The notes beneath the pieces were generated by a model. It did no database searches. It had not been told where the DNA came from and was given only the letters and a program-made list of their open reading frames with translations. This document shows positions 1-39,586 of a stretch of 39,586 bases of DNA, in pieces; within the stretch, counting starts at the first letter, position 1, and the number at the start of each line of letters is the position of its first letter. This DNA is from Escherichia phage vB_EcoP_LNA3: sequence record MZ311862.1; one strand, written 5' to 3'. The position numbers were made by a program, and so were the translations under genes.

Positions 1-167
1 ACTACATCGTCACTAAAGCTAGCCGTGAGTTCAACGCTAAGTTCTTCGGTAGCCCAGAGTCTGAACTGTACCTTCGTGAGCAGGAAGCAGAACTCTATCA
101 GCAGGTCATGGAATACGAGATGGATACTGGTCGCTACAACATGATGTCTGACATTGGGAGGGACTAA
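1..167 (+). CDS. tail tubular protein A (gp11), C-terminal part; 5' part is at 39187..39586
   Basis: Translation from base 3 ends ...[54 protein letters not shown], matching the remembered T7 gp11 C-terminus (WIVTKASRQFNNRFFG...). Stop TAA 165..167 overlaps the gp12 ATG. Confidence 0.85.
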
Positions 168-2524
168 TGCCGCTTATTACGCAAAGCATAAAAAATCTTA
201 AGGGTGGCATTAGCCAACAGCCTGACATCCTGAGGTTCTCAGACCAAGGCGAGGCACAGGTTAACTGCTGGTCATCCGAGAGTGATGGACTCCAGAAGCG
301 GCCACCTACAGTCTTCAAGCGACGTCTTAACATCGACGTTGGAAGCAACCCTAAGTTCCACCTGATTAACCGTGATGAGCAGGAGCAGTATTACATCGTG
401 TTCAATGGGTCCAACATTCAGGTAGTTGACTTGAGTGGTAAGCAATACTCAGTGTCAGGTGCGGTAGACTACGTTAAGTCCTCCAACCCACGAGATGACA
501 TCCGTGTCGTTACCGTGGCAGACTATACGTTCGTCGTTAACCGTAAGGTTGTCATCAAAGGTGGAAGCGAGAAGTCACACTCTGGTTATAACCGCAAAGC
601 ACGAGCTTTAATCAACCTACGTGGTGGACAGTATGGTCGAACCCTTAAGGTGGGAATCAACGGTGGCGTTAAGGTCTCGCATAAGCTACCAGCAGGTAAT
701 GATGCCGAGAATGACCCGCCTAAGGTGGACGCTCAAGCCATTGGTGCAGCTCTGAGAGACCTTCTTGTTACTGCCTACCCTACCTTCACGTTTGACCTTG
801 GGTCTGGATTCCTGCTAATCACAGCTCCTTCAGGGACCGATATTAACTCAGTGGAGACGGAGGATGGCTACGCTAACCAGCTAATAAGCCCAGTCCTAGA
901 CACTGTGCAGACAATTTCTAAACTACCTCTTGCCGCTCCTAATGGGTATATCATTAAGATTCAAGGTGAGACCAACAGTAGCGCCGATGAATATTACGTG
1001 ATGTATGACTCCAATACTAAGACGTGGAAGGAGACAGTAGAGCCGGGAGTGGTCACTGGGTTCGATAACACCACAATGCCACATGCTCTGGTGAGACAAT
1101 CTGACGGCTCCTTTGAGTTCAAGACTCTGGACTGGTCTAAGCGTGGTGCTGGTAATGATGACACAAACCCTATGCCTAGCTTCGTGGATGCTACGATTAA
1201 CGATGTGTTCTTCTACAGGAACAGGCTAGGGTTCTTGTCAGGCGAGAACGTAATCATGAGCCGTTCAGCAAGCTACTTTGCGTTCTTCCCTAAGAGTGTG
1301 GCGACACTGAGTGATGATGACCCTATTGATGTAGCTGTAAGTCATCCTAGAATCTCAATCCTTAAGTATGCCGTTCCGTTTAGCGAGCAGCTACTACTTT
1401 GGTCAGATGAGGTGCAGTTCGTGATGACAAGCTCAGGGGTCCTTACCTCGAAGTCTATCCAGCTTGATGTAGGCTCAGAGTTTGCCTTAGGAGATAATGC
1501 CAGACCGTTCGCTGTAGGACGCTCAGTCTTCTTCTCAGCGCCTCGTGGGTCATTCACCAGCATTAAGCGATACTTCGCTGTAGCAGATGTGTCTGACGTG
1601 AAGGATGCCGATGATACCACTGGTCACGTACTATCCTATATCCCTAACGGGGTGTTTGACATTCAGGGAACAGGGACTGAGAACTACATCTGCGTCAACT
1701 CTACAGGTGCATACAACCAAATCTACCTCTACAAGTTCTTGTTTAAGGACGGCGTACAGCTTCAAGCCTCTTGGTCTCACTGGGAGTTCCCTAAAGCTGA
1801 TAAGATTCTGGCGTCTGCGTCGATTGGCTCTACCATGTTCATTGTTCGTCAGCACCAAGGCGGCGTGGACCTTGAGCACCTTAAGTTCATCAAGGAGGCA
1901 ACTGACTTTCCGTCAGAGCCGTATAGACTCCACGTTGACTCCAAGGTGTCTATGGTCATCCCAATTGGCTCGTTTAATGCTGACACATATAAGACTACGG
2001 TTGACATTGGTGCTGCTTATGGTGGTAATGCTCCGTCTCCCGGTCGGTACTATCTGATTGACAGTCAGGGTGCTTATTTGGACCTTGGGGACTTGACCAG
2101 TATCTCTACTGTGATTACCCTCAACGGCGATTGGTCAGGACGTACAGTTTTCATCGGGCGGCCCTATCTGATGTCCTACAAGTTCTCACGGTTCCTGATT
2201 AAGATTGAAGATGATAGTGGCACCCAGTCTGAAGACACTGGTCGTCTACAGCTTCGTCGGGCTTGGGTCAACTACAAGGACACTGGCGCTCTGAGACTCA
2301 TTGTCAGAAACGGTGAGCGAGAGTTCGTTAACACCTTTAATGGGTACACCCTTGGTCAGCAAACCATAGGGACTACTAACATTGGTGACGGGCAGTATCG
2401 CTTCGCTATGAATGGTAACGCATTAACCACAAGTCTAACCTTAGAGTCCGACTATCCTACCCCAGTGTCAATCGTTGGGTGTGGCTGGGAGGCGTCATAC
2501 GCTAAGAAAGCTCGTTCCGTCTAA
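167..2524 (+). CDS. tail tubular protein B (gp12)
   Basis: 785-aa ORF directly after gp11, size and position as in T7 (794 aa); GGGAGGG Shine-Dalgarno upstream. Confidence 0.9.
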   Translation: MPLITQSIKNLKGGISQQPDILRFSDQGEAQVNCWSSESDGLQKRPPTVFKRRLNIDVGSNPKFHLINRDEQEQYYIVFNGSNIQVVDLSGKQYSVSGAVDYVKSSNPRDDIRVVTVADYTFVVNRKVVIKGGSEKSHSGYNRKARALINLRGGQYGRTLKVGINGGVKVSHKLPAGNDAENDPPKVDAQAIGAALRDLLVTAYPTFTFDLGSGFLLITAPSGTDINSVETEDGYANQLISPVLDTVQTISKLPLAAPNGYIIKIQGETNSSADEYYVMYDSNTKTWKETVEPGVVTGFDNTTMPHALVRQSDGSFEFKTLDWSKRGAGNDDTNPMPSFVDATINDVFFYRNRLGFLSGENVIMSRSASYFAFFPKSVATLSDDDPIDVAVSHPRISILKYAVPFSEQLLLWSDEVQFVMTSSGVLTSKSIQLDVGSEFALGDNARPFAVGRSVFFSAPRGSFTSIKRYFAVADVSDVKDADDTTGHVLSYIPNGVFDIQGTGTENYICVNSTGAYNQIYLYKFLFKDGVQLQASWSHWEFPKADKILASASIGSTMFIVRQHQGGVDLEHLKFIKEATDFPSEPYRLHVDSKVSMVIPIGSFNADTYKTTVDIGAAYGGNAPSPGRYYLIDSQGAYLDLGDLTSISTVITLNGDWSGRTVFIGRPYLMSYKFSRFLIKIEDDSGTQSEDTGRLQLRRAWVNYKDTGALRLIVRNGEREFVNTFNGYTLGQQTIGTTNIGDGQYRFAMNGNALTTSLTLESDYPTPVSIVGCGWEASYAKKARSV

Positions 2525-2531
2525 CTTATTG

Positions 2532-2581
2532 AAGGGCCTATAGATTTACCTTAACTATCACTATAGGGACTATAGGCCCTT
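2532..2581 (+). promoter_or_regulatory. perfect 12-bp inverted repeat (AAGGGCCTATAG / CTATAGGCCCTT) enclosing the gene 13 promoter; candidate RNase III site (T7 R13 position)
   Basis: Arms at 2532..2543 and 2570..2581 are exact reverse complements; the 26-nt loop holds the promoter core. Confidence 0.5.
2551..2569 (+). promoter_or_regulatory. phage RNA polymerase promoter (phi13 position)
   Basis: TTAACTATCACTATAGGGA, one of 11 copies of the conserved 19-mer; sits 32 bp upstream of the gene 13 start. Confidence 0.8.
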
Positions 2582-2600
2582 AAGGTTATAAGGAGACTTT

Positions 2601-3071
2601 ATGTATATTCGCAAGGCTACGGAACCGGATGTCCACTACTTTCTGTGGCATCTTTCAGCAGATGATGTTAATGAGTGCAAAGCAAACTATGGGTCAACCG
2701 TTGGTCTCTCTGAGAGACTGCTTAAGCATCTATCTCCTTCATCTGTGGTTTTAACGAACTGTGTAGGCGAAGTATTTGCCTATGGTGGAAACCAAGGGGA
2801 TAACGTATGGTTCTTGACTTCAAGTCTTGTCGAAAGGTTAAGTCCGAAAGACAAGCGGGAGTTCATTCAGCGCATCTCTGAGTACAGGGACTTAATGTTA
2901 GACCAATACGGGACCATCTGGAACTACGTGTGGTCAGGCAATAAGTCTCACATTAGATTCTTGCGGTTACTGGGAGCTAAGTTCCACCATGATGTGACTA
3001 TCAGTCCAGTAACAGGTGAGCGTTTTCAATTATTCACAATCTCTAAGGAGGACGTATGTGCGAACCCGTAA
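2601..3071 (+). CDS. internal virion protein A (gp13 position)
   Basis: 156-aa ORF with AAGGAG Shine-Dalgarno, between gp12 and gp14 as in T7; assigned by synteny only. Confidence 0.6.
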   Translation: MYIRKATEPDVHYFLWHLSADDVNECKANYGSTVGLSERLLKHLSPSSVVLTNCVGEVFAYGGNQGDNVWFLTSSLVERLSPKDKREFIQRISEYRDLMLDQYGTIWNYVWSGNKSHIRFLRLLGAKFHHDVTISPVTGERFQLFTISKEDVCANP

Positions 3072-9895: not shown

Positions 9896-12800
9896 ATGTC
9901 CACGATTACACAATTCCCTTCAGGAAACACTCAGTACAGGATTGAGTTCGACTACCTAGCCAGAACGTTTGTTGTTGTTACGCTGGTGAATAGCTCTAAC
10001 CCTACCATGAACCGTGTACTGGAAGTTGGTCGAGATTACCGATTCCTTAATCCAACGATGATTGAGATGTTGGTTGACCAATCAGGTTTCGACATCGTTC
10101 GCATTCACCGTCAGACTGGAACTGACTTAGTGGTAGACTTCAGGAATGGCTCAGTGTTGACAGCTAGTGACCTGACAAATTCAGAGCTTCAGGCTATCCA
10201 TATTGCAGAAGAAGGTCGAGACCAAACGGTTGACTTAGCGAAGGAATATGCCGATGCTGCTGGTAGCTCTGCTGGCAACGCTAAGGATAGCGAGGACGAA
10301 GCACGCCGAATCGCTGCGAGTATCAGGGAAGCTGGTCTAATTGGCTATATTACCCGTCGCTCCTTCGAGAAAGGCTACAACGTTACAACATGGAGCGAGG
10401 TCCTGCTATGGGAAGAGGATGGTGATTATTACCGCTGGGATGGTACGCTTCCAAAGAACGTTCCTGCTGGTTCAACTCCTGAAACTTCCGGTGGGATTGG
10501 ATTAGGTGCGTGGGTTAGTGTTGGTGATGCTGCTTTAAGGAGTCAGATTTCAAACCCGGAAGGGGCAATACTCTACCCTGAATTACATAGAGCACGCTGG
10601 CTTGATGAAAAAGATGTTCGTGGTTGGGGTGCTAAAGGGGATGGTGTCACTGATGATACAGCAGCGTTAACGAGAGCATTAAACGACACACCGGTTGGAC
10701 AAAGGATTAATGGCAATGGGAAGACATATAAGGTCACATCCCTGCCTGACATTAGTCGCTTCATCGACACTCGTTTCGTTTATGAGCGCATTCCCGGACA
10801 ACCTCTTTATTATGCCTCTGAAGGATTTGTTCAGGGTGAGCTGTTCAAAATAACGGACACCCCTTATTACAATGCGTGGCCTCAAGATAAAGCCTTTGTA
10901 TACGAGAACGTAATCTACGCACCTTATATGGGTAGTGACCGTCACGGTGTTAGCCGTCTCCATGTGTCATGGGTTAAGTCTGGTGACGATGGTCAAACAT
11001 GGTCTACTCCAGAGTGGCTTACCGACTTGCACCCAGAGTATCCTACAGTGAACTATCATTGTATGAGTATGGGTGTATGTCGCAACCGTCTGTTTGCCAT
11101 GATTGAAACACGTACTTTAGCCAATAACGCATTAACCAATTGTGCATTGTGGGATCGCCCCATGTCTCGTAGCCTGCATCTTACTGGTGGTATCACTAAA
11201 GCTGCAAATCAGCGATATGCAACAATACATGTACCAGACCACGGACTATTCGTGGGTGATTTTGTTAACTTCTCTAATTCTGCGGTAACAGGTGTATCCG
11301 GTGATATGACTGTTGCAACCGTAATAGATAAGGACAACTTCACGGTTCTTACACCAAACCAGCAGACTTCAGATTTGAATAACGCTGGAAAGAATTGGCA
11401 CATGGGTACTTCTTTCCATAAGTCTCCATGGCGTAAGACAGATCTTGGTCTAATCCCTCGTGTCACAGAGGTGCATAGCTTTGCTACTATTGATAACAAT
11501 GGCTTTGTTATGGGCTATCATCAAGGTGATGTAGCTCCACGAGAAGTTGGGCTTTTCTACTTCCCTGATGCTTTCAATAGCCCATCTAATTATGTTCGTC
11601 GTCAGATACCATCTGAGTATGAACCAGATGCGGCAGAGCCGTGCATCAAGTACTATGACGGTGTATTATACCTTATCACTCGTGGCACTCGTGGGGATAG
11701 ACTAGGTAGCTCTTTGCATCGTAGTAGAGACATAGGTCAGACTTGGGAGTCACTGAGATTTCCACATAATGTTCATCATACTACATTACCTTTTGCTAAA
11801 GTAGGGGATGACCTTATTATGTTTGGTTCAGAACGTGCAGAAAATGAATGGGAAGCATGTGCACCAGATGATCGTTACAAGGCATCTTATCCTCGCACCT
11901 TCTATGCACGCTTGAATGTAAACAATTGGAATGCAGATGATATTGAATGGGTTAACATCACTGACCAGATTTATCAGGGCGGAATAGTTAACTCAGGTGT
12001 AGGCGTTGGTTCGGTAGTTGTGAAGGATAATTACATCTACTACATGTTTGGTGGAGAAGACCATTTTAACCCATGGACATATGGAGATAACTCAGCGAAG
12101 GATCCATTCAAATCAGATGGTCATCCCTCAGATTTGTATTGCTACAAACTGAAGATTGGCCCAGACAATCGTGTTTCCAGGGATTTCAGGTATGGTGCTG
12201 TACCTAACAGAGCTGTTCCAGTGTTTTTTGATACGAATGGGATTCGCACTGTTCCTGCGCCAATGGAATTTACAGGGGATTTGGGTTTAGGTCATGTGAC
12301 CATTAGAGCCAGCACCAGTAGTAACATTCGCTCTGAAGTTTTAATGGAAGGTGAATATGGGTTTATCGGGAAATCTATACCGACTGATAACCCGGCAGGG
12401 CAGCGCATCATATTTTGCGGGGGTGAAGGCACCAGTTCAACGACTGGCGCACAGATTACGCTTTATGGTGCAAATAACACCGACTCAAGGCGAATAGTTT
12501 ACAACGGGGATGAGCATCTATTTCAGAGTGCTGATGTTAAGCCTTATAACGATAACGTCACTGCGCTTGGTGGGCCTAGCAACCGTTTCACCACCGCATA
12601 CCTCGGAAGTAACCCTATTGTTACTTCTAACGGGGAGAAGAAAACAGAGCCGGTAGTTTTTGATGATGCTTTCCTGGATGCCTGGGGTGACGTTCGCTAC
12701 ATCATGTACCAGTGGTTAGATGCTGTTCAACTGAAAGGCAATGATGCTCGTATTCACTTCGGGGTTATTGCTCAGCAAATTCGTGATGTATTCATTGCAC

Positions 12801-13222: not shown

Positions 13223-13417
13223 ATGATTGAGTTAGACTTCAAGAATGAGGTCCTTAAAGCCTCTCCTATCGTCGGGACCGCTGCGGCTGATGGTGCCAGT
13301 CGGTTCTTCTTTGGACTCACACTGAACGAATGGTTCTACGTTGCGGCTATCGCGTACACCGTTGTCCAAATTGGTGTGCTGGTCTACAAAACGATTAAAG
13401 GAGGTGGTAAAACATGA
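13223..13417 (+). CDS. holin (gp17.5)
   Basis: 64 aa, MIELDFKNEVLKASPIVGT...LNEWFYVAAIAYTVVQIG closely matches T7 gp17.5. Confidence 0.85.
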   Translation: MIELDFKNEVLKASPIVGTAAADGASRFFFGLTLNEWFYVAAIAYTVVQIGVLVYKTIKGGGKT

Positions 13418-13677: not shown

Positions 13678-13682
13678 GTGTT

Positions 13683-13726
13683 AGACTCAAGGTCATTACT
13701 ATATGTAGTGGCCTTTATGGTTAACA
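13683..13726 (+). ncRNA. conserved hairpin element, candidate RNase III site (T7 R18.5 position)
   Basis: TAGACTCAAGGTCAT-loop-GTGGCCTTTATGGTTAAC; the AAGGTCAT/GTGGCCTT stem recurs at 22245 and 29603 with different loops. Confidence 0.45.
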
Positions 13727-26736: not shown

Positions 26737-27184
26737 GGTACAGTTCAACCCACGGTCCAGGACTGACGCTATCTTCGTTCACTGTTCGGCTACCAAGCCA
26801 GAGATGGACATCGGGGTAGAGACCATCCGTATGTGGCACAAGCAGCAAGGCTGGCTGGACGTAGGCTACCACTTTATCATCAAGCGCGATGGTACTGTGG
26901 AAGAGGGACGCCCGGTAAACGTCGTAGGGTCACACGTTAAGGACTGGAACTCACGGTCTGTAGGCGTCTGCCTTGTAGGTGGAGTTGACGCTAAGGGCAA
27001 GTTTGAAGCTAACTTCACTCCAGCCCAGATGAACTCCCTGCGCAACAAGCTGGCTGACCTGAAGTCCCTGTATCCTCAGGCAGAAATCAAAGCACATCAT
27101 GATGTAGCACCAAAGGCGTGTCCAAGTTTCGACTTACAGCGCTGGCTGTCTACTAATGAGCTGGTCACTTCCGACCACGGTTAA
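26726..27184 (+). CDS. lysozyme / N-acetylmuramoyl-L-alanine amidase (gp3.5)
   Basis: 152 aa; TDAIFVHCSATKP...GWLDVGYHFIIKRDGTVEEGR...AHHDVAPKACPSFDL...ELVTSD matches T7 lysozyme. Confidence 0.92.
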   Translation: MVSKVQFNPRSRTDAIFVHCSATKPEMDIGVETIRMWHKQQGWLDVGYHFIIKRDGTVEEGRPVNVVGSHVKDWNSRSVGVCLVGGVDAKGKFEANFTPAQMNSLRNKLADLKSLYPQAEIKAHHDVAPKACPSFDLQRWLSTNELVTSDHG

Positions 27185-27208
27185 TAAACTCTAAAGGAGA
27201 ATAACTTA

Positions 27209-27424
27209 ATGATTAAACTTATCGAATTTCTAGGTCGTCTGGTGGTGCGTGGTTATCGTCGTGCTGCGGTACTGGAACGAAAGGTAGAAAAGAAGACTGC
27301 TGATGGCGCGGCTGATGCTGCTGCTCTGGCTGACAAGCTGACCATCGCGTCACTGGAAGCTGGCATGAAGGCTCGTCAGGCTGATACCAAAGCTGACAAG
27401 TTGTCTCAGTTCTTCAAAGACTAA
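27209..27424 (+). CDS. hypothetical protein
   Basis: 71-aa Ala/Lys-rich ORF with AAGGAG Shine-Dalgarno. Confidence 0.5.
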   Translation: MIKLIEFLGRLVVRGYRRAAVLERKVEKKTADGAADAAALADKLTIASLEAGMKARQADTKADKLSQFFKD

Positions 27425-27440
27425 ACTATCACCTTAGGGA
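27422..27440 (+). promoter_or_regulatory. degenerate phage-promoter-like sequence (phi3.8/phi4 position)
   Basis: TAAACTATCACCTTAGGGA differs from the consensus at -4 and -3; function uncertain. Confidence 0.35.
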
Positions 27441-27492
27441 TGGGACCATGAGTCCTGTCCCTTTGTTCGCATTTGTGACTAAGGAGTGACCG

Positions 27493-27672
27493 ATGGTTAC
27501 AGTTATTCTAGTTCTAACGCTTATCAGTGGTAGTGGGCAAACTATCAGCCAAGTACCTATAACAGCACCAACATTACAGGACGCATTCACAATATGTGAC
27601 CAGTCCGGCTCAAAGTGGGCCGACAAGTTTGGCGATGTCTCAAACGTTGCAGCAGGGTATGAGTGTATTTAA
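27493..27672 (+). CDS. small putative secreted or membrane protein (hypothetical)
   Basis: 59 aa (MVTVILVLTLISGSGQ...) with AAGGAG 6 nt upstream; bracketed by 12-bp direct repeats TAAGGAGTGACC at 27480 and 27670; below the ORF-track cutoff. Confidence 0.45.
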   Translation: MVTVILVLTLISGSGQTISQVPITAPTLQDAFTICDQSGSKWADKFGDVSNVAAGYECI

Positions 27673-27679
27673 GGAGTGA

Positions 27680-29383
<1,704 letters not shown>

Positions 29384-29434
29384 ATGTCAATGCCCTGAGT
29401 GCGATTGGAAGTCACCATACGGAGGACACCATTA

Positions 29435-29599
29435 GTGTTTAAGAAACTTAAAGCTCGATACCATCGGTTCATGTACAAATGGTGGAGCGATGAAGCAACC
29501 TGCCTGTCGAACATTCTGGGAGACCAGCGGTTCAACTCTGCGGCATGGAAGAAAGCCAACCGGAAGTTCATGTATCACTTCTTGCGTACAGACTTCTAG
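29435..29599 (+). CDS. hypothetical small protein (gene 4.3/4.5 position)
   Basis: 54 aa from GTG 29435, 8 nt after GGAGGA; the track's 29399 start is also non-ATG with no Shine-Dalgarno. Confidence 0.4.
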   Translation: MFKKLKARYHRFMYKWWSDEATCLSNILGDQRFNSAAWKKANRKFMYHFLRTDF

Positions 29600-29602
29600 G
29601 TC

Positions 29603-29645
29603 TAGACTCAAGGTCATTCATAGCGAGTGGCCTTTATGATTAGAC
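29603..29645 (+). ncRNA. conserved hairpin element, candidate RNase III site (T7 R4.7 position)
   Basis: TAGACTCAAGGTCAT-TCATAGCGA-GTGGCCTTTATGATTAGAC; third copy of the stem. Confidence 0.45.
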
Positions 29646-29663
29646 TAAAGCGGAGGATTAACC

Positions 29664-31835
29664 ATGTTTGACCTTAAGAGTATCTGGGGTTCTGACATCG
29701 AGACCAACGGTCTCCTTGATACAGTCTCCCAGTTTCACTGTGGGGTCCTGATTAACGCCGAGTCGAATGAGACCCTTAAGTATGGGGTAGCTCCGATGGT
29801 CGGTATCGTCGGCGGCTTCAAAGAGTATGTTCATAAAGTGGAAGAGATTGCCGCATCACCTGATGGTATGCTGGTATTCCATAACGGTATCAACTATGAC
29901 GTCCCGGCTATAGACAAGCTGAAGCGTTTGTACTTTGGGAAACGCTTTAACTTCCCGAAACATAAGATGATTGATACCTTGGTGCTGGGACGCTTGATGT
30001 ATCCAAACATTAAGTTCTCAGACATGGGCGCGGTGAAAGCTGGTCGTCTGCCACCTAAGATGATGGGACGCCAGTCTCTTGAGGCTTGGGGCTATCGTCT
30101 CGGTGAGATGAAAGGTGAGTACAAACACGATTACGTTGCCAAGTGCAAGGCTGAAGGTATCGAATATAAGGCTGGGGACGAATGGTTGTTCCCGTCTCAG
30201 GAGATGCTGGACTATAACGTTCAAGACGTTGTGGTCACACTGGCGTTGTTCAAGAAGTTCCTGACTGACAAGTATTACTTCCAGTCTGAACAGTTCGCTT
30301 TCGACCAGATTTATGCGTTGCGTCTGGAACATGATGCTGCGTGGACCTGTGCGAAGATGGAACGTAACGGCTATCCGATGAACACCGAGATGGTCGAAGG
30401 TTTATATCGTGAACTCACCGTCAAACGTGCAGAGCTGCTGGACAAGCTGCGTTCGACTTTCGGCAGCTGGTACGCACCAAAGGGAGGCAAGGAGTTCTTC
30501 AAGCACCCACGGACAGGCAAGGACCTTCCGAAGTATCCGCGCGTCGTGTATCCTAAGGTCGGGTCAGTATTCAAGAAGCCGAAGAACAAAGCTCAACGCT
30601 TAGGTCTGGAGCCTTGCGAGTTCGACTCACGAGACACGATGGAAGGAGCACCGTTCACGCCAATCACTTACGTTGAGTTTAATCCGGGGAGCGGAGACCA
30701 CTTAGCGAAAGTCTTGATGGAGCGTGGTTGGGAGCCTGTTGACTTCACTGACACTGGGAAACCTGTAGTCGATGACGAGACGTTGGAACACGTTAAGTTA
30801 CCAGACGCAGAGGCTCAGGCTTGCGTAGAGCTGGTCCGTGAGTATCTGGTAGTCCAGAAGCGTATCGGACAGGCTGCTGAAGGTAAGAACGCATGGTTGA
30901 AACTTGTAGGTCCAGACGGGCGTATGCACGGTTCAATCAACCCTTGTGGAGCAGTAACCGGACGTGCGACACATAGTTCACCAAACATGGCTCAGGTCCC
31001 GGCTAACGGTGCTCCATATGGTGAGACTTGCCGTGGTGCTTTCGGTGCAGCGTGGAACAAGAAGGACGGTAAGCCAGACCCTTGGATTCAAGTAGGCGTG
31101 GATGCTTCAGGTCTTGAGCTTCGTTGTCTGGGGAACCGAGCGGCTCCGTTTGATGGTGGTGCCTATGCGAAGACTGTGGTAGAAGGTGACATCCACTGGG
31201 CCAACGCAGTAAACGCTGGGTTAGCACCTAACGTCCCACGCGATAAGTCGAACCACGACCATGATGCTTTCCGTAACAACGCTAAGACGTTCATCTATGC
31301 GTTCCTGTATGGTGCAGGGGCCGCTAAGATTGGACTGATAGTAGGCGGTGGTAAGAAGGAAGGTTCAGCTCTCATGAAGAAATTCATTGAGGGTACACCA
31401 GCTATTAAAGACCTCAGGGAAGCTGTGCGTAATACGTTAATATCAGACTCTAAGTGGGTGGACGGAGAGAACATCGTCAAGTGGAAACGCCGTTGGTTGC
31501 GTGGACTTGATGGTCGTCGTATCCACATCCGGTCTCCGCACTCAGCACTTAACGCCTTACTTCAAGGTGATGGTGCGGTAGTATGTAAGCACTGGATTGT
31601 CGAGACTGAACGTATGCTCGAAGAGGCAGGGTATGTTCACGGCTGGGAAGGTGACTTTGCGTACATGGCTTGGGTGCATGACGAATTGCAGATTGCGTGT
31701 CGTACTCAGGAGATTGCCGAAGAAGTCGTAAAGATTGCTCAACTTGCTATGCGTAAGGTGGGTGAGTTCTATAACTTTAAATGTGTCATTGATACCGAAG
31801 GTAAGATTGGACCAACGTGGAAGGAGTGTCACTAA
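29664..31835 (+). CDS. DNA polymerase (gp5, family A)
   Basis: 723 aa collinear with T7 DNA polymerase (SDIETNGLL...FHCGV, ...SLEAWGYRLGEMKGEYK..., ending GPTWKECH). Confidence 0.96.
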   Translation: MFDLKSIWGSDIETNGLLDTVSQFHCGVLINAESNETLKYGVAPMVGIVGGFKEYVHKVEEIAASPDGMLVFHNGINYDVPAIDKLKRLYFGKRFNFPKHKMIDTLVLGRLMYPNIKFSDMGAVKAGRLPPKMMGRQSLEAWGYRLGEMKGEYKHDYVAKCKAEGIEYKAGDEWLFPSQEMLDYNVQDVVVTLALFKKFLTDKYYFQSEQFAFDQIYALRLEHDAAWTCAKMERNGYPMNTEMVEGLYRELTVKRAELLDKLRSTFGSWYAPKGGKEFFKHPRTGKDLPKYPRVVYPKVGSVFKKPKNKAQRLGLEPCEFDSRDTMEGAPFTPITYVEFNPGSGDHLAKVLMERGWEPVDFTDTGKPVVDDETLEHVKLPDAEAQACVELVREYLVVQKRIGQAAEGKNAWLKLVGPDGRMHGSINPCGAVTGRATHSSPNMAQVPANGAPYGETCRGAFGAAWNKKDGKPDPWIQVGVDASGLELRCLGNRAAPFDGGAYAKTVVEGDIHWANAVNAGLAPNVPRDKSNHDHDAFRNNAKTFIYAFLYGAGAAKIGLIVGGGKKEGSALMKKFIEGTPAIKDLREAVRNTLISDSKWVDGENIVKWKRRWLRGLDGRRIHIRSPHSALNALLQGDGAVVCKHWIVETERMLEEAGYVHGWEGDFAYMAWVHDELQIACRTQEIAEEVVKIAQLAMRKVGEFYNFKCVIDTEGKIGPTWKECH

Positions 31836-31993
31836 TGGCTATTACTTATAGCGAGCAGGAGGTCAAAGACCTGATGCGGTCAGCTTGGTGGTGTGGACAC
31901 GAGGAGTCTCGTTATAGTCCAAACCTCAGTGGACAGTGCAGTCGAGACATTCGTGAAATTCTGAAAGAACATAACGAAGAAGGGGAAGACTAA
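31835..31993 (+). CDS. hypothetical small protein (gene 5.3 position)
   Basis: 52-aa ORF starting in a TAATGG overlap with the gp5 stop; shares the 16-bp start context ACTAATGGCTATTACT with the next gene; below the ORF-track cutoff. Confidence 0.45.
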   Translation: MAITYSEQEVKDLMRSAWWCGHEESRYSPNLSGQCSRDIREILKEHNEEGED

Positions 31994-32277
31994 TGGCTAT
32001 TACTAAACGTATTCGTGTAAGTTTCGACCTGAAGCTGGTTGTCAACTCAAAGGAAGAAGAGACCATGTGTCGCCAACTGGCTGAGTTGACTAAAGCCTAC
32101 GCTGAGGGTGAGAAGCTGGATGGACTTCAGTTGGTTCTGGTCAAAGCAGCAATCGAGTCAGGCCCTGAGTCTGCCCTTGAGATTGCCGCCAAGAAGACCA
32201 TCAAGGAGGAGCTGGTAGACGCCTTTGATGATGGTAAGTTCGGAGTATCCAACCTGCGATTCGAGGTCAAGCAATGA
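31993..32277 (+). CDS. gp5.5-like protein (T7 gp5.5 binds host H-NS)
   Basis: 94 aa; MAITKRIRVSFDL matches the T7 gp5.5 N-terminus (MAMTKRFKVSFDV). Confidence 0.7.
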   Translation: MAITKRIRVSFDLKLVVNSKEEETMCRQLAELTKAYAEGEKLDGLQLVLVKAAIESGPESALEIAAKKTIKEELVDAFDDGKFGVSNLRFEVKQ

Positions 32278-32483
32278 GTGAATACTTACGGGTCCTAGCG
32301 GCCCTTAAGTCCTGCCCGAAGACCTTCCAGTCCAACTATGTGCGCAACAACGCTGCACTGGTGGCTGAGGCTGCGAGTCGTGGACATCTAAGCTGCCTGT
32401 CTATGGATGGGCGTAACAACGGTGCGTGGGAGATTACCGCTGCTGGCACCAAGTTCCTGAACCAACATGGAGGCTGTCTATGA
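32274..32483 (+). CDS. gp5.7-like protein
   Basis: 69 aa (same as T7 gp5.7) with LKSCPKTFQSNYVRNNAALVAEAASRGH...GAWEITAAGTKFL near-identical to T7. Confidence 0.85.
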   Translation: MSEYLRVLAALKSCPKTFQSNYVRNNAALVAEAASRGHLSCLSMDGRNNGAWEITAAGTKFLNQHGGCL

Positions 32484-32935
32484 AGATACCTGAAAGTCTG
32501 AAAGAGCTGGTCCTTGACATAGGTGAGTGTGAGTGCGAGAAGGAGCACCGCAAGTACGCTGAGTTCTACGCATCTTGGTCATACACCTTGACAGAGAATG
32601 ACGTTGAGTCATATACCGAGTCTCCCGCTGAGGCCTATGAGTGGCGTCAGTTCATCGGGCTGACCATCGTAGCCAGTGGTATGTGGAATGACAGCTACGG
32701 TTCAGAGGTAAATGACTGGGGAGTATATCGCCAGGTTGAGAAGGAGACTGAGATGTCTTCAAACTTCTGGAACCTGATGTCCCACCTCAACTCAGATGAC
32801 AACGACATGGCACATGAGTTCGCAAACAAATGGCTGAAGCCTGAGGTGACTCTGGAACGTATTGAGGAGCCTAAAGTTCCCTTGATTCCATATGCAGTCG
32901 CTATGGCTACAGGAGGTCTGGACGATGGGTGCTGA
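32480..32935 (+). CDS. acidic hypothetical protein (gene 5.9 position, about three times larger)
   Basis: 151 aa from ATG 32480 (GGAGG upstream, ATGA overlap with the gp5.7 stop); Asp/Glu-rich. Confidence 0.55.
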   Translation: MKIPESLKELVLDIGECECEKEHRKYAEFYASWSYTLTENDVESYTESPAEAYEWRQFIGLTIVASGMWNDSYGSEVNDWGVYRQVEKETEMSSNFWNLMSHLNSDDNDMAHEFANKWLKPEVTLERIEEPKVPLIPYAVAMATGGLDDGC

Positions 32936-33794
32936 GAAGAAGATAGCTCTTGTTCTTGATGGCGATTACCTAGTATTCTCTTCTATGGCTGCTGCCGAGG
33001 ACGAGACAGACTGGGGTGATGACATCTGGACCCTTATCTGCGACCACGAGAAGGCTCGCCGTATCCTTGAGAACACCATCGCTGAAATCGTTAAGAAGCG
33101 CAAGGCGTGGAAAGACGCTAAGATTGTGATGTGCTTTACTGATGATAACAACTGGCGTAAGGACGTTTTGCCTACCTATAAGGCTAACCGTAAGGGTTCT
33201 CGCAAGCCTGTAGGTTACAAGAAGTTCGTAGACGAAGTGATGGATGATCCACGGTTCAACAGCTTCCTGCGTCCAACGCTTGAGGGCGATGATTGTATGG
33301 GTATCATCGGGACCAGACCTCAGATTGTCGGATGCGACCATGCGGTGCTGGTGTCCTGCGATAAGGACTTCAAGACCATCCCGAACTGTGAGTTCTTCTG
33401 GTTAACCACTGGTGAAATCCTGAGTCATACGACTTCCGAGGCAGACTACTGGCACATGGAGCAGACCATCAAGGGTGACACTACAGATGGCTACGGCGGT
33501 ATTCCGGGGATGGGTGAGGACACCACTCGTGCATTCCTTGACGAACCGTACTACTTCGTGCAGGAGAGCCGCGAGCTTAAGACTGGCAAGAACAAAGGCC
33601 AGATTAAGACTGAGTGGAAGAAGTATCCGAAGCGTGAAGACATGACGCTGTGGGACTGCATGGTTACACTGGCTGCTAAGGCTGGCATGACCGAGGAGGA
33701 ACTTCTGGTCCAAGCTCAGGTCGCTCGTATTTGTCGAGCATCTGACTATGACCCTAAGTCCAAGGAGGTCATCCTATGGACACCATCCATGTAA
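32925..33794 (+). CDS. 5'-3' exonuclease (gp6)
   Basis: 289 aa from ATG 32925 (AGGAGG upstream); CDHEKARRILEN, NWRKDVLPTYKANRK, LEGDDCMGIIG and SCDKDFKTIPNCEF match T7 gp6. Confidence 0.92.
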   Translation: MGAEKKIALVLDGDYLVFSSMAAAEDETDWGDDIWTLICDHEKARRILENTIAEIVKKRKAWKDAKIVMCFTDDNNWRKDVLPTYKANRKGSRKPVGYKKFVDEVMDDPRFNSFLRPTLEGDDCMGIIGTRPQIVGCDHAVLVSCDKDFKTIPNCEFFWLTTGEILSHTTSEADYWHMEQTIKGDTTDGYGGIPGMGEDTTRAFLDEPYYFVQESRELKTGKNKGQIKTEWKKYPKREDMTLWDCMVTLAAKAGMTEEELLVQAQVARICRASDYDPKSKEVILWTPSM

Positions 33795-34004: not shown

Positions 34005-34277
34005 ATGGCTCTTAATGCTATTGAAAACGTTGTTAAGCAGTTACAGGAAGAAAGACTCGATGTCCCTAACATCTCCCAGTCTGCTATCCAGTTCCTGCAC
34101 GTATTGTTCAACGCAAGCTACGCTGAGAAGATGGGAGTTATCAGTCTCCTCAAGCAGCAAGGCTACAGCGATGCGTTCATTGCCGGGTTCATCAAGGGTC
34201 TCCAGTATTGTTCTGACACTCTCGACTCTGCGATTTCTATGCGTCGTGAGCTGAAAGATACCGTTCAGTTTGATTAA
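34005..34277 (+). CDS. hypothetical protein (gene 6.5 position)
   Basis: 90-aa ORF with AAGAGGAG Shine-Dalgarno. Confidence 0.6.
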   Translation: MALNAIENVVKQLQEERLDVPNISQSAIQFLHVLFNASYAEKMGVISLLKQQGYSDAFIAGFIKGLQYCSDTLDSAISMRRELKDTVQFD

Positions 34278-34291
34278 CTGTAGGAGGGACT

Positions 34292-34516
34292 ATGTGTTTC
34301 AGTCCGAAGATTAGCACTCCGAAGCCTTCGGTCCAAGCACCTGAGCCAGCACCTCTGAGTGAGGAAGTTGCGTCAGTTGACATCGGGGCTGAATCAGATG
34401 TGGACACCAACGAGACCAAAGGTATCAAAGACCTGAAGGTCAAGAAGGAGTCTGCACCTAAAGATAAATCGTCAGTAAGTCGCGCTATGCGTAACTCTGG
34501 CGTCAACATGGGGTAA
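34292..34516 (+). CDS. gp6.7-like virion protein
   Basis: 74 aa; MCFSPKISTPK...EPAPL matches the T7 gp6.7 N-terminus. Confidence 0.8.
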   Translation: MCFSPKISTPKPSVQAPEPAPLSEEVASVDIGAESDVDTNETKGIKDLKVKKESAPKDKSSVSRAMRNSGVNMG

Positions 34517-34520
34517 GACA

Positions 34521-34925
34521 ATGCTACCATATCTCAACTCACGCGAAGGTCGCCACATGTGCGCTTGTCGCCTCTGGGAAGACGGGCAGTCTAACTTCAA
34601 GTCATTCGAGGACTTCAAGGCTCATACTTACCGTATGGCTGACGAGTTCGACGGTGAAGAATACACAATCTACGATGTATCAGGTCAACCAGTAGCGTAT
34701 CTCTACATGCTGGCTACCGCATCTTGGCACAGACCGACTCCCGGTCTTGACCTTTCAATCGTCGCTATTCGTCGTGACTCGCAGTCCTACCGCAAGGTTC
34801 TTGAGACTGTCAGACGCATCATAGACGAAGAGTGCAAGCGTTGGGGTCTTGGCTGGTATTCTCGTGTCAAGCATGTTTCTGGGTCGGTAGACATCGTAAC
34901 AACTAAGGAGATTAACCGTGGGTAA
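34521..34925 (+). CDS. gp7-like virion protein
   Basis: 134 aa (T7 gp7 133 aa) at the syntenic position. Confidence 0.65.
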   Translation: MLPYLNSREGRHMCACRLWEDGQSNFKSFEDFKAHTYRMADEFDGEEYTIYDVSGQPVAYLYMLATASWHRPTPGLDLSIVAIRRDSQSYRKVLETVRRIIDEECKRWGLGWYSRVKHVSGSVDIVTTKEINRG

Positions 34926-35166
34926 ATCAATCAGTAAGGCTTTCAAGAAAGTGGTGAAAAGTACGTTAGGGACAGTAGGTCTTGGCTCTGACGATGCACC
35001 TAAGGTTGTTGAGGCCCAGACCCCAGCAGCACCAGTGGAAGTACCGAACGATAAAGTGGAAGATGTGGATACCGAAGCAACCGCATCTGACGAGAAGAAA
35101 GTGAAGCGTTCAGGTAAGCGTAGCCTTCAGGTCTCTCGCACCTCTGGTGGTGGTATTTCTATTTAA
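34918..35166 (+). CDS. gp7.3-like tail-associated protein
   Basis: 82 aa; MGKSISKAFKKVVKS... ending ...SLQVSRTSGGGISI, like T7 gp7.3 (...SLSVARSSGGGINI). GTG start 7 nt after TAAGGAG. Confidence 0.75.
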   Translation: MGKSISKAFKKVVKSTLGTVGLGSDDAPKVVEAQTPAAPVEVPNDKVEDVDTEATASDEKKVKRSGKRSLQVSRTSGGGISI

Positions 35167-35177
35167 GGAGGTGACGA

Positions 35178-36746
35178 ATGGCTGAACGTGAAGGGTTCGC
35201 TGCTGAAGGAGCCAAAGCGGTCTATGACCGCCTGAAGAACGGTAGACAGCCATATGAGACACGCGCTCAGAATTGTGCTGCTGTCACTATCCCGTCACTG
35301 TTTCCTAAGGAGTCCGACAACTCGTCTACTGAGTACACCACTCCGTGGCAAGCTGTAGGTGCTAGATGTTTGAACAACTTGGCTGCAAAGCTGATGTTGG
35401 CATTATTCCCCCAGTCACCGTGGATGCGACTTACAGTCTCCGAATATGAGGCTAAGACCTTGAGTCAGGACTCAGAGGCTGCTGCTCGTGTTGACGAGGG
35501 GCTTGCTATGGTCGAGCGTGTGTTGATGGCCTACATGGAGACAAACAGTTTCCGTGTGCCATTGTTCGAAGCTCTGAAGCAGCTTATAGTCTCCGGTAAC
35601 TGTCTGCTCTACATTCCAGAGCCTGAACAGGGAACCTACAGTCCCATGCGAATGTACCGCTTAGTGTCTTACGTTGTTCAACGTGATGCGTTCGGTAACA
35701 TCTTGCAGATTGTGACTCTCGACAAGGTAGCGTTTAGTGCTCTACCGGAAGACGTGAAGTCTCAACTCAACGCAGACGACTATGAGCCTGACACCGAGCT
35801 GGAAGTGTATACGCACATTTACCGTCAGGACGACGAATATCTACGCTACGAGGAAGTGGAAGGCATTGAGGTAGCAGGGACCGAGGGTTCCTACCCACTG
35901 ACTGCATGTCCATACATCCCGGTACGAATGGTTCGACTGGATGGTGAAGACTACGGTCGTTCTTACTGCGAGGAGTATCTGGGAGACCTGAACTCGCTGG
36001 AGACGATTACAGAAGCTATCACTAAAATGGCTAAGGTAGCCTCCAAGGTGATTGGCCTCGTTAACCCGAACGGTATCACGCAACCTCGACGTCTGAACAA
36101 GGCGGCTACAGGTGAGTTCGTGGCTGGTCGCGTTGAGGACATCAACTTCCTGCAACTGACGAAAGGTCAGGACTTTACGATTGCCAAGTCGGTGGCTGAT
36201 GCTATCGAGCAACGTTTAGGCTGGGCCTTCCTTCTTAATAGTGCTGTTCAGCGTAATGCCGAGCGAGTCACTGCTGAAGAGATTCGTTATGTTGCTGGCG
36301 AACTGGAGGCGACCTTAGGTGGCGTGTACTCAGTACAGTCACAAGAGCTTCAGTTACCTATCGTCCGTGTTCTGATGAACCAGCTTCAGTCTGCTGGAAT
36401 GATTCCTGACCTTCCGAAAGAAGCGGTAGAGCCTACTGTCTCCACTGGTCTGGAAGCGTTAGGTCGTGGTCAAGACTTAGAGAAGCTGACTCAGGCGGTG
36501 AACATGATGACTGGACTTCAGCCTCTGGCTCAGGACCCGGACATCAACTTGCCGACCCTTAAGCTGCGACTCCTGAACGCTCTGGGTATAGACACCGCTG
36601 GATTACTCCTGACGCAAGACGAGAAGATTCAGCGCATGGCTGAACAGTCGTCTCAACAGGCAGTAGTCCAAGGTGCTGGTGCTGCTGGTGCCAACATGGG
36701 AGCTGCTGTAGGTCAGGGAGCTGGTGAGGACATGGCTCAAGCCTAA
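35178..36746 (+). CDS. head-to-tail connector / portal protein (gp8)
   Basis: 522 aa collinear with T7 gp8 (YETRAQNCA..TIPSLFPK, TPWQAVGAR, AFGN.LQ.VT.D, LGGVYS..SQELQLP). Confidence 0.95.
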   Translation: MAEREGFAAEGAKAVYDRLKNGRQPYETRAQNCAAVTIPSLFPKESDNSSTEYTTPWQAVGARCLNNLAAKLMLALFPQSPWMRLTVSEYEAKTLSQDSEAAARVDEGLAMVERVLMAYMETNSFRVPLFEALKQLIVSGNCLLYIPEPEQGTYSPMRMYRLVSYVVQRDAFGNILQIVTLDKVAFSALPEDVKSQLNADDYEPDTELEVYTHIYRQDDEYLRYEEVEGIEVAGTEGSYPLTACPYIPVRMVRLDGEDYGRSYCEEYLGDLNSLETITEAITKMAKVASKVIGLVNPNGITQPRRLNKAATGEFVAGRVEDINFLQLTKGQDFTIAKSVADAIEQRLGWAFLLNSAVQRNAERVTAEEIRYVAGELEATLGGVYSVQSQELQLPIVRVLMNQLQSAGMIPDLPKEAVEPTVSTGLEALGRGQDLEKLTQAVNMMTGLQPLAQDPDINLPTLKLRLLNALGIDTAGLLLTQDEKIQRMAEQSSQQAVVQGAGAAGANMGAAVGQGAGEDMAQA

Positions 36747-36761
36747 ACTATCACTATAGGA
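36744..36761 (+). promoter_or_regulatory. phage RNA polymerase promoter (phi9 position)
   Basis: TAAACTATCACTATAGGA overlapping the gp8 stop codon. Confidence 0.75.
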
Positions 36762-36840
36762 ACAACACCGTAAGTCCAACTCTAGGTGAGTCAACTAGAC
36801 GAGGCAGGTGTTACCTATTAACTACCAAAGGAGAGACTTA

Positions 36841-37725
36841 ATGTCCCAATCAGTTTATGCCGAGTTCGGCGTTAGCCCTAATGCAATCACTGGCTCCGTT
36901 GAGGACCTTAACGAACACCAACAGTCTATGCTGGAGAAGGACGTAGCTGTCCGTGATGGCGATGACGCCATTACCTTCAAGCAACTGGAAGCCGAGCAGG
37001 AAGAGGCGACCGAAGAAGACGAGAACGTAGAAGAGACTGAGGGTGATGAAGACAACGAGTCCGATGACGAAGAGTCTGAGACCGATGATGATCAGCCTGA
37101 GTTCATCGAACTTGGTGATGCACCGAAAGAGCTGACTGAAAGTGTCACCGCTCTGGATGAAAACGAAGCTGCATTTGACGACATGGTGTCTTCTGCTGTA
37201 GAAGCTGGCAAGGTCACTGCTGATGAAATTACCGCTATCAAGGCTGAATACGCCAAGGACGGTAAGCTGTCTGACGCATCCTACGCTAAGTTGCAGGAAG
37301 CAGGTTACACCAAGCGCTTCGTAGATTCGTTTGTCCGTGGTCAGGAAGCTCTGGCTGAACAGTATGCCGCTGGTGTGGTTCGCTACGCTGGTGGTGCTGA
37401 ACAGTTTAATCGCATCCTGTCACACCTTGAGTCCAACGACCCGTCAACTCGTGAAGCATTGGAAGCTGCCATCGTTCGTAAGGACATTGCGACTACCAAA
37501 GCTCTGCTGAATCTGGCTGGCAAGACTCTGGGTAAAGCTGTGGGTGTTAAACCTCAGCGTACCATCACCACTCAGGCTAAACCTGTGGTCGCACCTAAGG
37601 CTCCTCAGACCGAAGCATTCAGCTCCAAGGCTGACATGATTAAGGCTATGAGTGACCCGCGATACCTGCGTGACGCTAAGTACACTATGGAAGTCCGCGC
37701 TAAGGTAGCTGCCTCAAGCCTGTAG
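36841..37725 (+). CDS. capsid assembly scaffolding protein (gp9)
   Basis: 294 aa from ATG 36841 (AAAGGAGAG upstream), highly acidic, C-terminal ...MIKAMSDPRY as in T7 gp9; the track's 36808 start lacks a Shine-Dalgarno. Confidence 0.9.
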   Translation: MSQSVYAEFGVSPNAITGSVEDLNEHQQSMLEKDVAVRDGDDAITFKQLEAEQEEATEEDENVEETEGDEDNESDDEESETDDDQPEFIELGDAPKELTESVTALDENEAAFDDMVSSAVEAGKVTADEITAIKAEYAKDGKLSDASYAKLQEAGYTKRFVDSFVRGQEALAEQYAAGVVRYAGGAEQFNRILSHLESNDPSTREALEAAIVRKDIATTKALLNLAGKTLGKAVGVKPQRTITTQAKPVVAPKAPQTEAFSSKADMIKAMSDPRYLRDAKYTMEVRAKVAASSL

Positions 37726-37728
37726 GAC

Positions 37729-37747
37729 TAAACTATCACTATAGGGA
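37729..37747 (+). promoter_or_regulatory. phage RNA polymerase promoter (phi10 position)
   Basis: TAAACTATCACTATAGGGA, exact consensus, about 105 bp upstream of the capsid gene. Confidence 0.85.
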
Positions 37748-37851
37748 TACCAATAGACAGACTCAAGGTTTCCCTATTACTTCAGTCCATACGGATTGGG
37801 CGTACAGTAAGTAATAAACTTTATCTTTCAATTGAATAGGAGAATTATCAT

Positions 37852-38895
37852 ATGGCAAACGTTCCGGGTCAGAAAGTTGGTACAGACCAAGGTAAGGGCA
37901 AATCTGGTTCCGACGCTCTGGCGTTGTTCCTGAAGGTCTTTGCTGGCGAAGTCCTGACCGCATTCACTCGCCGCTCTGTAACTGCTGACAAGCATATTGT
38001 CCGTACCATTCAGAACGGTAAGTCTGCTCAGTTCCCGGTCATGGGTCGCACCTCTGGTGTGTATCTGGCTCCTGGTGAGCGACTGTCCGATAAGCGTAAA
38101 GGTATCAAACATACCGAGAAAGTGATTACCATTGATGGTCTGCTGACTGCCGATGTGATGATTTTCGACATTGAAGACGCGATGAACCACTATGACGTGG
38201 CTGGCGAGTACTCCAACCAGTTGGGCGAAGCTCTGGCTATCGCTGCCGATGGTGCTGTTCTGGCTGAAATGGCCACCCTGTGTAACCTCCCGGCTGCATC
38301 CAACGAGAACATTGCTGGTCTAGGCACTGCGTCCGTACTTGAAGTTGGTAAGAAAGCTGACCTCAACACCCCGGCTAAACTGGGCGAAGCAATCATCGGT
38401 CAACTGACCATTGCTCGTGCGAAGCTGACCTCCAACTACGTTCCTGCTGGCGACCGTTACTTCTACACCACGCCGGACAACTACTCTGCAATCCTCGCGG
38501 CTCTGATGCCGAACGCTGCTAACTATGCTGCGCTGATTGACCCAGAGACTGGTAACATCCGTAACGTAATGGGCTTCGTGGTTGTTGAAGTTCCACACTT
38601 GACTCAGGGTGGTGCTGGTGAAACTCGTGGTGACGATGGTATCACTATTGCGACTGGTCAGAAGCACGCCTTCCCAGCTACTGCTACTGGTGATGTTAAA
38701 GTTGCTCTGAACAACGTTGTGGGCCTGTTCTCTCACCGTTCTGCTGTGGGTACTGTGAAGCTGCGCGACTTGGCGCTGGAACGTGACCGTGACGTCGATG
38801 CTCAGGGCGACCTGATTGTTGGTAAATACGCTATGGGTCACGGTGGCCTGCGTCCTGAAGCGGCTGGCGCACTGGTTTTCAGCCCAGCGACGTAA
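37852..38895 (+). CDS. major capsid protein 10A
   Basis: 347 aa collinear with T7 gp10A (LALFLKVF.GEVLTAF, KHTEKVITIDGLLTADV, ...RDLALER..., ...KYAMGHGGLRPEAAGA). Confidence 0.97.
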   Translation: MANVPGQKVGTDQGKGKSGSDALALFLKVFAGEVLTAFTRRSVTADKHIVRTIQNGKSAQFPVMGRTSGVYLAPGERLSDKRKGIKHTEKVITIDGLLTADVMIFDIEDAMNHYDVAGEYSNQLGEALAIAADGAVLAEMATLCNLPAASNENIAGLGTASVLEVGKKADLNTPAKLGEAIIGQLTIARAKLTSNYVPAGDRYFYTTPDNYSAILAALMPNAANYAALIDPETGNIRNVMGFVVVEVPHLTQGGAGETRGDDGITIATGQKHAFPATATGDVKVALNNVVGLFSHRSAVGTVKLRDLALERDRDVDAQGDLIVGKYAMGHGGLRPEAAGALVFSPAT

Positions 38896-39026
38896 GCACC
38901 TTTAGCCAACCTAACGTCGCTACAGTAGCGGCTACACCTGAAGAGGAGACTCTAACTCCTCAACAGAAAGCTGCGCGTACTCGTGCTGCGAACAGGGCCG
39001 CTAAACTGGCTGAGTCCAACAACTAA
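37852..39026 (+). CDS. minor capsid protein 10B by programmed -1 frameshift (predicted)
   Basis: Heptamer G GTT TTC at 38874..38880, 13 nt before the 10A stop; the -1 frame is then open for 49 codons to TAA 39024..39026. Confidence 0.6.
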
Positions 39027-39032
39027 TTGAAA

Positions 39033-39069
39033 CCCCTTGGGTGCCTTCGGGTGCCTGAGGGGTTTTTTT
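39033..39069 (+). terminator. intrinsic terminator (T7 T-phi position)
   Basis: CCCCTTGGGTG / TGCCTGAGGGG arms (pairing includes G-U) followed by TTTTTTT, just after the 10B stop. Confidence 0.75.
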
Positions 39070-39186
39070 GCTTAAAGTGAGGATGATTATGTTTTACTTA
39101 CTTACAGCCTTGGGACTATTTGTTAGTTTCTGGGCGATTATACTATTAACCGGACCATGCAGTCCTTACGACAGATAGGAGGGAGT

Positions 39187-39586
39187 ATGGCTCAATACAT
39201 TCCACTGAATGCTAACGATGACTTAGACGCTATCAACGATATGTTAGCTGCTATCGGTGAACCGGCAGTCCTACAGCTTGACGAGGGGAACGCTGACGTC
39301 TCGAACGCCCAACGTATCCTGCATCGTGTCAATCGTCAGGTCCAAGCTAAAGGCTGGAACTTTAACATCAATGAAGCTGCTGTCCTGACACCTGATGTCC
39401 AAGACAATAGGATTCGATTCTTGCCGTCATACCTTCGTGTAATGACCGCTGGGGCCACCAGCTACTACAGCAACATGGGTGGATACCTGTACGACCTGTC
39501 CACTCAGTCGACCACTTTCACCGACCCTATCACGGTAGAGCTTGTGGAGATGAAGCCATTCTCCGAGATGCCTGTGGTCTTCAGGG
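39187..39586 (+). CDS. tail tubular protein A (gp11), N-terminal part; continues at 1..167
   Basis: MAQYIPLNANDDLDAINDMLAAIGEP...ILHRVNRQVQAKGWNFNI...EMPVVFR matches the T7 gp11 N-terminal region; GGAGGGAG Shine-Dalgarno; truncated by the window end. Confidence 0.85.
   Translation, partial: MAQYIPLNANDDLDAINDMLAAIGEPAVLQLDEGNADVSNAQRILHRVNRQVQAKGWNFNINEAAVLTPDVQDNRIRFLPSYLRVMTAGATSYYSNMGGYLYDLSTQSTTFTDPITVELVEMKPFSEMPVVFR

Follow-up and report, generated by a model that had tools for sequence, protein, structure and literature searches.

The deposited genome of Escherichia phage vB_EcoP_LNA3 as a probable circular permutation of a linear K1F-like genome, opened inside gene 11

The sequence record MZ311862.1 of Escherichia phage vB_EcoP_LNA3, a stretch of 39,586 nucleotides analysed here at its full length (hereafter, the window), holds the complete genome of a T7-type podophage. 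The phage is strictly lytic, K1F-like and a member of the genus Kayfunavirus, and its tail spike is of the endosialidase type. We consider it highly probable (about 0.93) that this genome was circularized through one copy of its terminal repeat and then opened inside gene 11, the gene of the tail tubular protein A or adaptor, and that the virion carries linear DNA with a 177-bp repeat at both ends. An earlier note on this DNA had proposed that the window is a whole genome in circular permutation, with gene 11 divided between its two ends, and both proposals hold up in the comparisons described below.

Gene 11 closes in frame across the record ends

The division of gene 11 into a 5′ part at the end of the window and a 3′ part at its start can be read directly in the sequence. 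The ATG (39187-39189), preceded by the Shine-Dalgarno-like AGGAGGGAG, begins a run of 400 nucleotides (39187-39586) that comprises 133 codons and one further base, G. Together with AC at positions 1-2, this G gives GAC (Asp134), the codon named in the earlier note, and the frame then stays open as far as a TAA codon (165-167) whose last base is also the first of the gene 12 ATG (167-169). Once joined, the open reading frame (ORF) is 567 nucleotides long and encodes 188 amino acids followed by a stop, the protein length that had been stated. Its neighbourhood is likewise that of T7: the capsid gene (37852-38895) and a terminator (39029-39069) precede gene 11, and gene 12 (167-2524) follows it.

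At the protein level, the joined gp11 is identical to gp11 of Escherichia phage K1F at 188 of 188 residues without a gap, and a tblastn search with K1F gp11 recovers residues 1-188 at 100% identity from the re-joined sequence. The alignment with the 196-residue gp11 of T7, expected in the earlier note, is contiguous across residue 134, with 87 identities over 172 positions (51%) and a single gap of one residue. The Pfam family PF17212 ‘Tube’ is matched over its entire profile (1-169 of 169) by residues 13-179, at 157.6 bits against a cut-off of 22.3, and this match runs uninterrupted over the junction residue. Furthermore, the PDB chain 9vvr_T matches the joined protein identically over residues 1-188 of 188, and the solved T7 gp11 chains 7box_M and 6r21_M are also matched. 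Every test run assigns the joined protein to the T7 gp11 adaptor family. The closure of gene 11 is not a product of chance; the gene is intact and ordinary, and its split is only apparent.

The junction is equally continuous in DNA. A query of 1,400 nucleotides, made of the last 700 and the first 700 bases of the window, aligns in a single piece over 100% of its length and with 97.8% identity to the phages phiYIO1-1 and BUCT788, and at least 80% of it is covered in 174 phage records. The 36-mer centred on the 39586/1 joint has an exact match in seven independent contigs of IMG/VR. No leftover assembler overlap of 6 or more bases was found between the window ends, and since the ends share no bases, nothing is duplicated or missing at the joint. 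In line with this, a 16.9-kb alignment to K1F at 96.0% identity extends from window position 39186 through the 39586/1 joint to position 16465.

The window is a complete genome collinear with K1F

The reference for these comparisons was Escherichia phage K1F (DQ111067 / NC_007456; 39,704 bp), of the genus Kayfunavirus, Studiervirinae, Autographiviridae. A megablast search places the window among the K1F-like phages of this genus at approximately 94-96% identity. Once its start is moved to position 16676, the window aligns collinearly with bases 1-39704 of K1F, as the proposal of a whole genome implies. Forty of the 41 K1F proteins tested are encoded in K1F order on the + strand; the one K1F protein of this set that was not found in the window is the homing endonuclease located inside the K1F polymerase gene. 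The window also encodes a single-subunit RNA polymerase (98.1% identity to the K1F enzyme), and its + strand genes follow the T7 order, as expected of a T7-type phage. Because it holds the full T7-type gene set in K1F order, along with phage promoters repeated on the + strand, the window represents a complete genome and not a fragment.

The likeness to K1F extends from gene 0.3 to gene 19.5 in gene order. Identity is 100% for gp11, gp17.5 and gp18, 99.5% for gp19, 98.1% for the RNA polymerase and 97.9% for gp17, the endosialidase. The two records differ in form: K1F was deposited as a linear sequence that starts at the true left end and contains both repeat copies, whereas the window is rotated and contains one.

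Phages belong to the same species under the criterion of the International Committee on Taxonomy of Viruses when they share at least 95% nucleotide identity over the whole genome. Against the three relatives covered by our whole-genome comparison, the product of identity and coverage is 0.902 for K1F, 0.919 for phiYIO1-1 and 0.874 for BUCT788. With a value of 0.90 to K1F, under the 95% rule, the window phage falls outside species K1F, and, judged on these three relatives, it may be an undescribed species-level lineage of Kayfunavirus. No identical genome was found in the phage collection, where the best records are approximately 94-96% identical.

A single internal copy of the terminal repeat marks the genome ends

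The K1F record has an exact 178-bp repeat at both of its ends. Its first base aligns to window position 16676 and its last base to 16852, which puts the left end of the genome at 16676 (TCTCACAG...) and its right end, to within one base, at 16852 (...TTGAGTCTC). The earlier note had suggested that one copy of the terminal repeat is collapsed in the window. This agrees with our finding that the only full-length self-match of the repeat stretch is 16676-16852 itself; a search of the window for a second, diverged copy returned chance matches of 12-20 bases only. Both end motifs, TCTCACAGT on the left and the one at the right end, are common to the window and T7.

Records of other relatives place the repeat in the same stretch. 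It aligns to positions 1-178 of EcoDS1, annotated ‘terminal repeat’ with a ‘concatemeric junction’ at the repeat end, to the ‘long terminal repeat’ annotated at 1-179 of Vec13, and to the repeat of Peacock, which is read-based and described as ‘direct terminal repeat predicted by PhageTerm’; the Peacock record states that its right genome end is not duplicated. In the K1F-like Citrobacter phages SH3-SH5, run-off sequencing gave repeats of 183-190 bp, and the K1F repeat is quoted there as 179 bp (PMC4925675).

The surroundings of the repeat carry landmarks in the positions known from T7: a phiOR-like promoter precedes it, arrays of short repeats lie on both sides, and an early sigma-70 promoter follows. 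The window contains 17 occurrences of the short repeat CCTACAGT, where 1.5 would be expected, and nine of the 17 are clustered at 16614-16994, on either side of the terminal repeat. The early sigma-70-like promoter lies ahead of gene 0.3, at a distance from the left end that resembles that of T7 promoters A1-A3.

Origin of the permuted form

During replication, T7-type genomes are linked head to tail in concatemers whose junctions each contain a single copy of the repeat; its second copy is synthesized on packaging (PMC5557969). The packaged genome of the window phage should, on the evidence of its alignment to K1F, run from 16676 through the 39586/1 joint to 16852, as linear DNA of approximately 39,763 bp that would start at 16676 and carry the 177 bp of 16676-16852 at both ends. 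The sum of 39,586 and 177 lies within 60 bp of the K1F length. The second repeat copy would thus be present in the virion, and the circle was probably made by assembly software. Because the two end copies would be identical, an assembler could join the right end to the left through a single copy; reads from replicating concatemers could lead to the same join. The resulting ‘circle’ of 39,586 bp would then have been linearized at an arbitrary point, here in codon 134 of gene 11. The position within this codon has no biological meaning, in accordance with the arbitrary opening suggested in the earlier note, and the authors of PhageTerm describe, with T7 as their example, how assemblers set the first base of such phages at random (PMC5557969). 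The same paper predicts doubled coverage between the two termini (PMC5557969).

Such handling is very common among relatives. In 38 of the 60 best-matching GenBank relatives the repeat lies away from record position 1, and it is present in nearly all of these as a single copy. Like the window, permuted deposits of phages with terminal repeats begin at an arbitrary base, contain the repeat once and internally, and divide a gene between the record ends; they differ from it only in the opening point. The BUCT788 record (PV540240.1) has an endolysin gene (25-483) at its start and a fragment ‘similar to amidase’ (40371-40469) at its end, and appears to have been opened inside the lysozyme gene; the record of phiYIO1-1 (PP079210.1) is flagged circular. 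Single-copy circular permutation is a known artefact of data handling, described for T7 (PMC5557969), and not new biology.

Some points weigh against our reading. The borders of the repeat are transferred from relatives that are 94-98% identical in the repeat stretch, and the window repeat has a deletion of one base relative to K1F inside the repeat. Moreover, the exact ends are placed to within 1-2 bases, and both the second repeat copy and the source of the circular join are inferred. The last of these leaves some room for a physically real single-copy junction, which would mean that the sequenced material consisted wholly or partly of replicating concatemers, from infected cells, a metagenome or unpackaged DNA. 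The replication of T7 just described, in which each concatemer junction holds one repeat copy until packaging makes the second, speaks for this origin, as does the ‘concatemeric junction’ annotated in EcoDS1, and concatemers would yield a sequence identical to the window. For the same reason, this alternative differs from circularization by assembly solely in the source of the joining reads and leaves the identity of the window untouched; we regard it as unlikely, while granting it appreciable weight.

A circular map would be correct in itself if the phage packaged its DNA by the headful, in truly circularly permuted and terminally redundant molecules without fixed ends. The only point in favour of this is that the sequence closes into a circle. 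Headful packaging is contradicted by the terminase and by the conserved end motifs. In K1F, a phage with fixed ends and the exact 178-bp repeat, the small terminase subunit is 100% and the large one 99.5% identical to its counterpart in the window. The repeat of K1F is conserved in the window, as are its two end motifs, which recur in T7 as well, and relatives analysed by PhageTerm reads or by run-off sequencing have fixed ends. Neither of the marks of headful packaging, a pac-type terminase and a lack of conserved fixed termini, was found in the window, and we consider this mode of packaging very improbable. Just as improbable is that the window represents a K1F-like phage that has lost fixed ends through a real change of packaging mode, in which a tandem array of 16-bp units beside the repeat (16873-16955) would be part of an altered junction-processing signal; it is far more likely that the phage is an undescribed species-level lineage. 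Finally, the window might be only part of a genome, or a plasmid, prophage or other circular replicon, whose ends close by coincidence or misleadingly. The closure, however, restores a protein identical to K1F gp11 at 188 of 188 residues, all K1F genes except the mobile endonuclease are present in order at a length within 60 bp of K1F, and neither the K1F protein comparison nor the family scans yielded a gene for an integrase, a repressor or plasmid replication. The exact closure and the completeness of the T7-type gene set together exclude a partial genome, a plasmid or a prophage, and we attach next to no probability to this reading.

For users of the record, circularization of a linear genome through one repeat copy has practical consequences. 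Gene 11 calls for annotation as a single intact gene, not two fragments, and the record should start at 16676 and end with an added copy of the 177-bp repeat, giving approximately 39,763 bp. The stretch 16676-16852 marks the genome ends and is not ordinary intergenic DNA. In its permuted form, the record would mislead scans for split genes, pseudogenes and ‘missing’ ends. The value of the correction is practical and not conceptual; its sole wider relevance is that the phage, because it carries a K1-capsule endosialidase, belongs to a group studied for phage therapy.

Gene map and comparison with T7

The features of the window are collected in Table 1.

Table 1 Genes and sequence elements of the window, in window positions
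Feature	Position	Strand	Basis
Gene 11 (tail tubular protein A / adaptor), 5′ part: codons 1-133 and first base of codon 134	39187..39586	+	ATG and frame
Gene 11, 3′ part: last two bases of codon 134, codons 135-188, TAA stop 165-167	1..167	+	In-frame closure
Direct terminal repeat, single copy (concatemer-junction form), 177 bp	16676..16852	+	Alignment to both K1F ends and annotated repeats of relatives
Gene 12 (tail tubular protein B), 785 amino acids	167..2524	+	98.3% to K1F gp12 over 785 amino acids
Gene 13, internal virion protein	2601-3071	+	Within the gp13-gp16 range of 89.7-97.9% to K1F, full length
Gene 14, internal virion protein	3056-3643	+	Within the gp13-gp16 range of 89.7-97.9% to K1F, full length
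Gene 15, internal virion protein	3655-5937	+	Within the gp13-gp16 range of 89.7-97.9% to K1F, full length
Gene 16, internal virion protein	5943-9830	+	Within the gp13-gp16 range of 89.7-97.9% to K1F, full length
Gene 17, endosialidase-type tail spike, 1064 amino acids, K1-capsule-specific	9896..13090	+	97.9% to K1F gp17 (annotated endo-N-acetylneuraminidase) over 1064 amino acids
Genes 17.5 (holin-like), 18 (small terminase), 18.5 (spanin), 19 (large terminase, 14225/14258-15988)	13223..15988	+	100%, 100%, 97.3%, 99.5% to K1F
Phage RNA polymerase promoter CTTAACTATCACTATAGGGAAGA, T7 phiOR position	16087..16109	+	Match to repeated consensus; approximately 590 bp upstream of repeat
Gene 19.5, 52 amino acids, last gene of the linear genome	16280..16438	+	phrog_2193, E = 4e-22; position as gp19.5 in relatives
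16-bp unit TCACTAACCTACAGTC, 5.2 perfect tandem copies, adjoining the repeat on the right	16873..16955	+	Copies match 100%
Strong sigma-70-like early promoter, TTGACA-17-TAGTAT, T7 A promoter position	17247..17275	+	Consensus match only, 10/12
Early region: gene 0.3 (17795-18298), small early genes, gene 1	17795..21921	+	gp0.3 82% to K1F
Gene 1, single-subunit RNA polymerase, 893 amino acids	19240-21921	+	98.1% to K1F RNA polymerase
DNA metabolism region: gp1.2-like, ligase, gp1.7-like, gp2, SSB, endonuclease I, lysozyme, primase-helicase, DNA polymerase, gp5.5-like, gp5.7, exonuclease	22499..33794	+	K1F comparison and family scans
Primase-helicase	27683-29383	+	
DNA polymerase	29664-31835	+	
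Genes 6.5, 6.7, 7, 7.3, portal (35178-36746), scaffold (36808/36841-37725), major capsid (37852-38895)	34005..38895	+	96.3-98.9% to K1F
Tphi-like intrinsic terminator, spacer between genes 10 and 11	39029..39069	+	17-bp stem, 4-nucleotide loop, T run; T7 Tphi position

The genome follows the same plan as T7 (NC_001604): in both, short repeats are arrayed next to the terminal repeat, the right end is preceded by a phiOR-type promoter, and gene 11 by a Tphi-type terminator. It differs from T7 in the length of the terminal repeat (approximately 177 bp, against 160 bp in T7), in the length of gp11 (188 against 196 amino acids) and in having an endosialidase spike where T7 has a tail fibre. The short repeat flanking the ends also differs: it is CCTACAGT here, and its T7 counterpart is CCTAAAG.

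The phage promoter consensus (T/A)AACTATCACTATAGG(G/A) is found in approximately nine copies, all on the + strand and upstream of gene blocks. Besides the phiOR-like copy, these lie near positions 2553, 9830, 19152, 22228, 23860, 33925, 36746 and 37731.

Differences from K1F and minor elements

Several segments of the early and middle regions have no aligned counterpart in K1F. A gp1.2-like dGTPase inhibitor (phrog_6515; 22499-22747), a DUF3310/gp1.7-like protein (24156-24596), a gp5.5-like H-NS inhibitor (phrog_1452; 31993-32277) and a phrog_4382 ORF between genes 5.7 and 6 (approximately 32480-32935) are each absent or diverged in K1F, and the ORF at 26278-26736 (phrog_16385) has an N-terminal half without a counterpart in its K1F homologue. 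A scan of the ORFs in the segments that do not align to K1F revealed nothing unusual, all of them belonging to ordinary accessory gene families of the T7 group. These gene differences are ordinary mosaicism.

The two genomes also differ in the replication genes. In K1F, the polymerase gene is annotated in two joined pieces around an insert of approximately 600 bp with the homing endonuclease (K1F 14937-15534); the insert site corresponds to window position 31679/31680, where the insert is missing and the polymerase, of 723 amino acids, is uninterrupted. The primase-helicase gene of DQ111067 contains one additional G at its end, which appears as a frameshift between the two sequences and gives a product of 586 amino acids with an unrelated tail. 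The window gp4 (29340-29440 region) has 566 amino acids and ends in ...WENNDF, like T7 gp4 (566 amino acids, ...NDTDF). A sequencing error in the window at this point is less likely; the extra G is probably an error in the K1F record.

Two repeated elements lie to the right of the genome ends. The perfect copies of the 16-bp tandem array (16873-16955) suggest a recent expansion, and the counterpart of the array in K1F is more degenerate; the copy number of such an array may be unreliable in a short-read assembly. Farther into the early region, an exact 20-bp direct repeat, CCTGACTGATAGTCACTAAC, occurs at 17430-17449 and 17747-17766, just before the early ORF at 17457-17711 and gene 0.3 (17795), respectively. 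The pair looks like a duplicated leader or an RNase III-type processing region of the sort usually found between the early genes of T7.

The spacer between genes 10 and 11 (38896-39186) contains, in addition to the terminator, a hydrophobic ORF of 31 amino acids at 39083-39178 (MIMFYLLTALGLFVSFWAIILLTGPCSPYDR), for which no family match was found. In many relatives, inserts of approximately 235-650 bp are present somewhere within the queried stretch from gene 10 to gene 12, and these carry genes annotated as an RNA-binding/DUF3850 protein or an endonuclease. The gene 10/11 spacer may be a hotspot for mobile genes.

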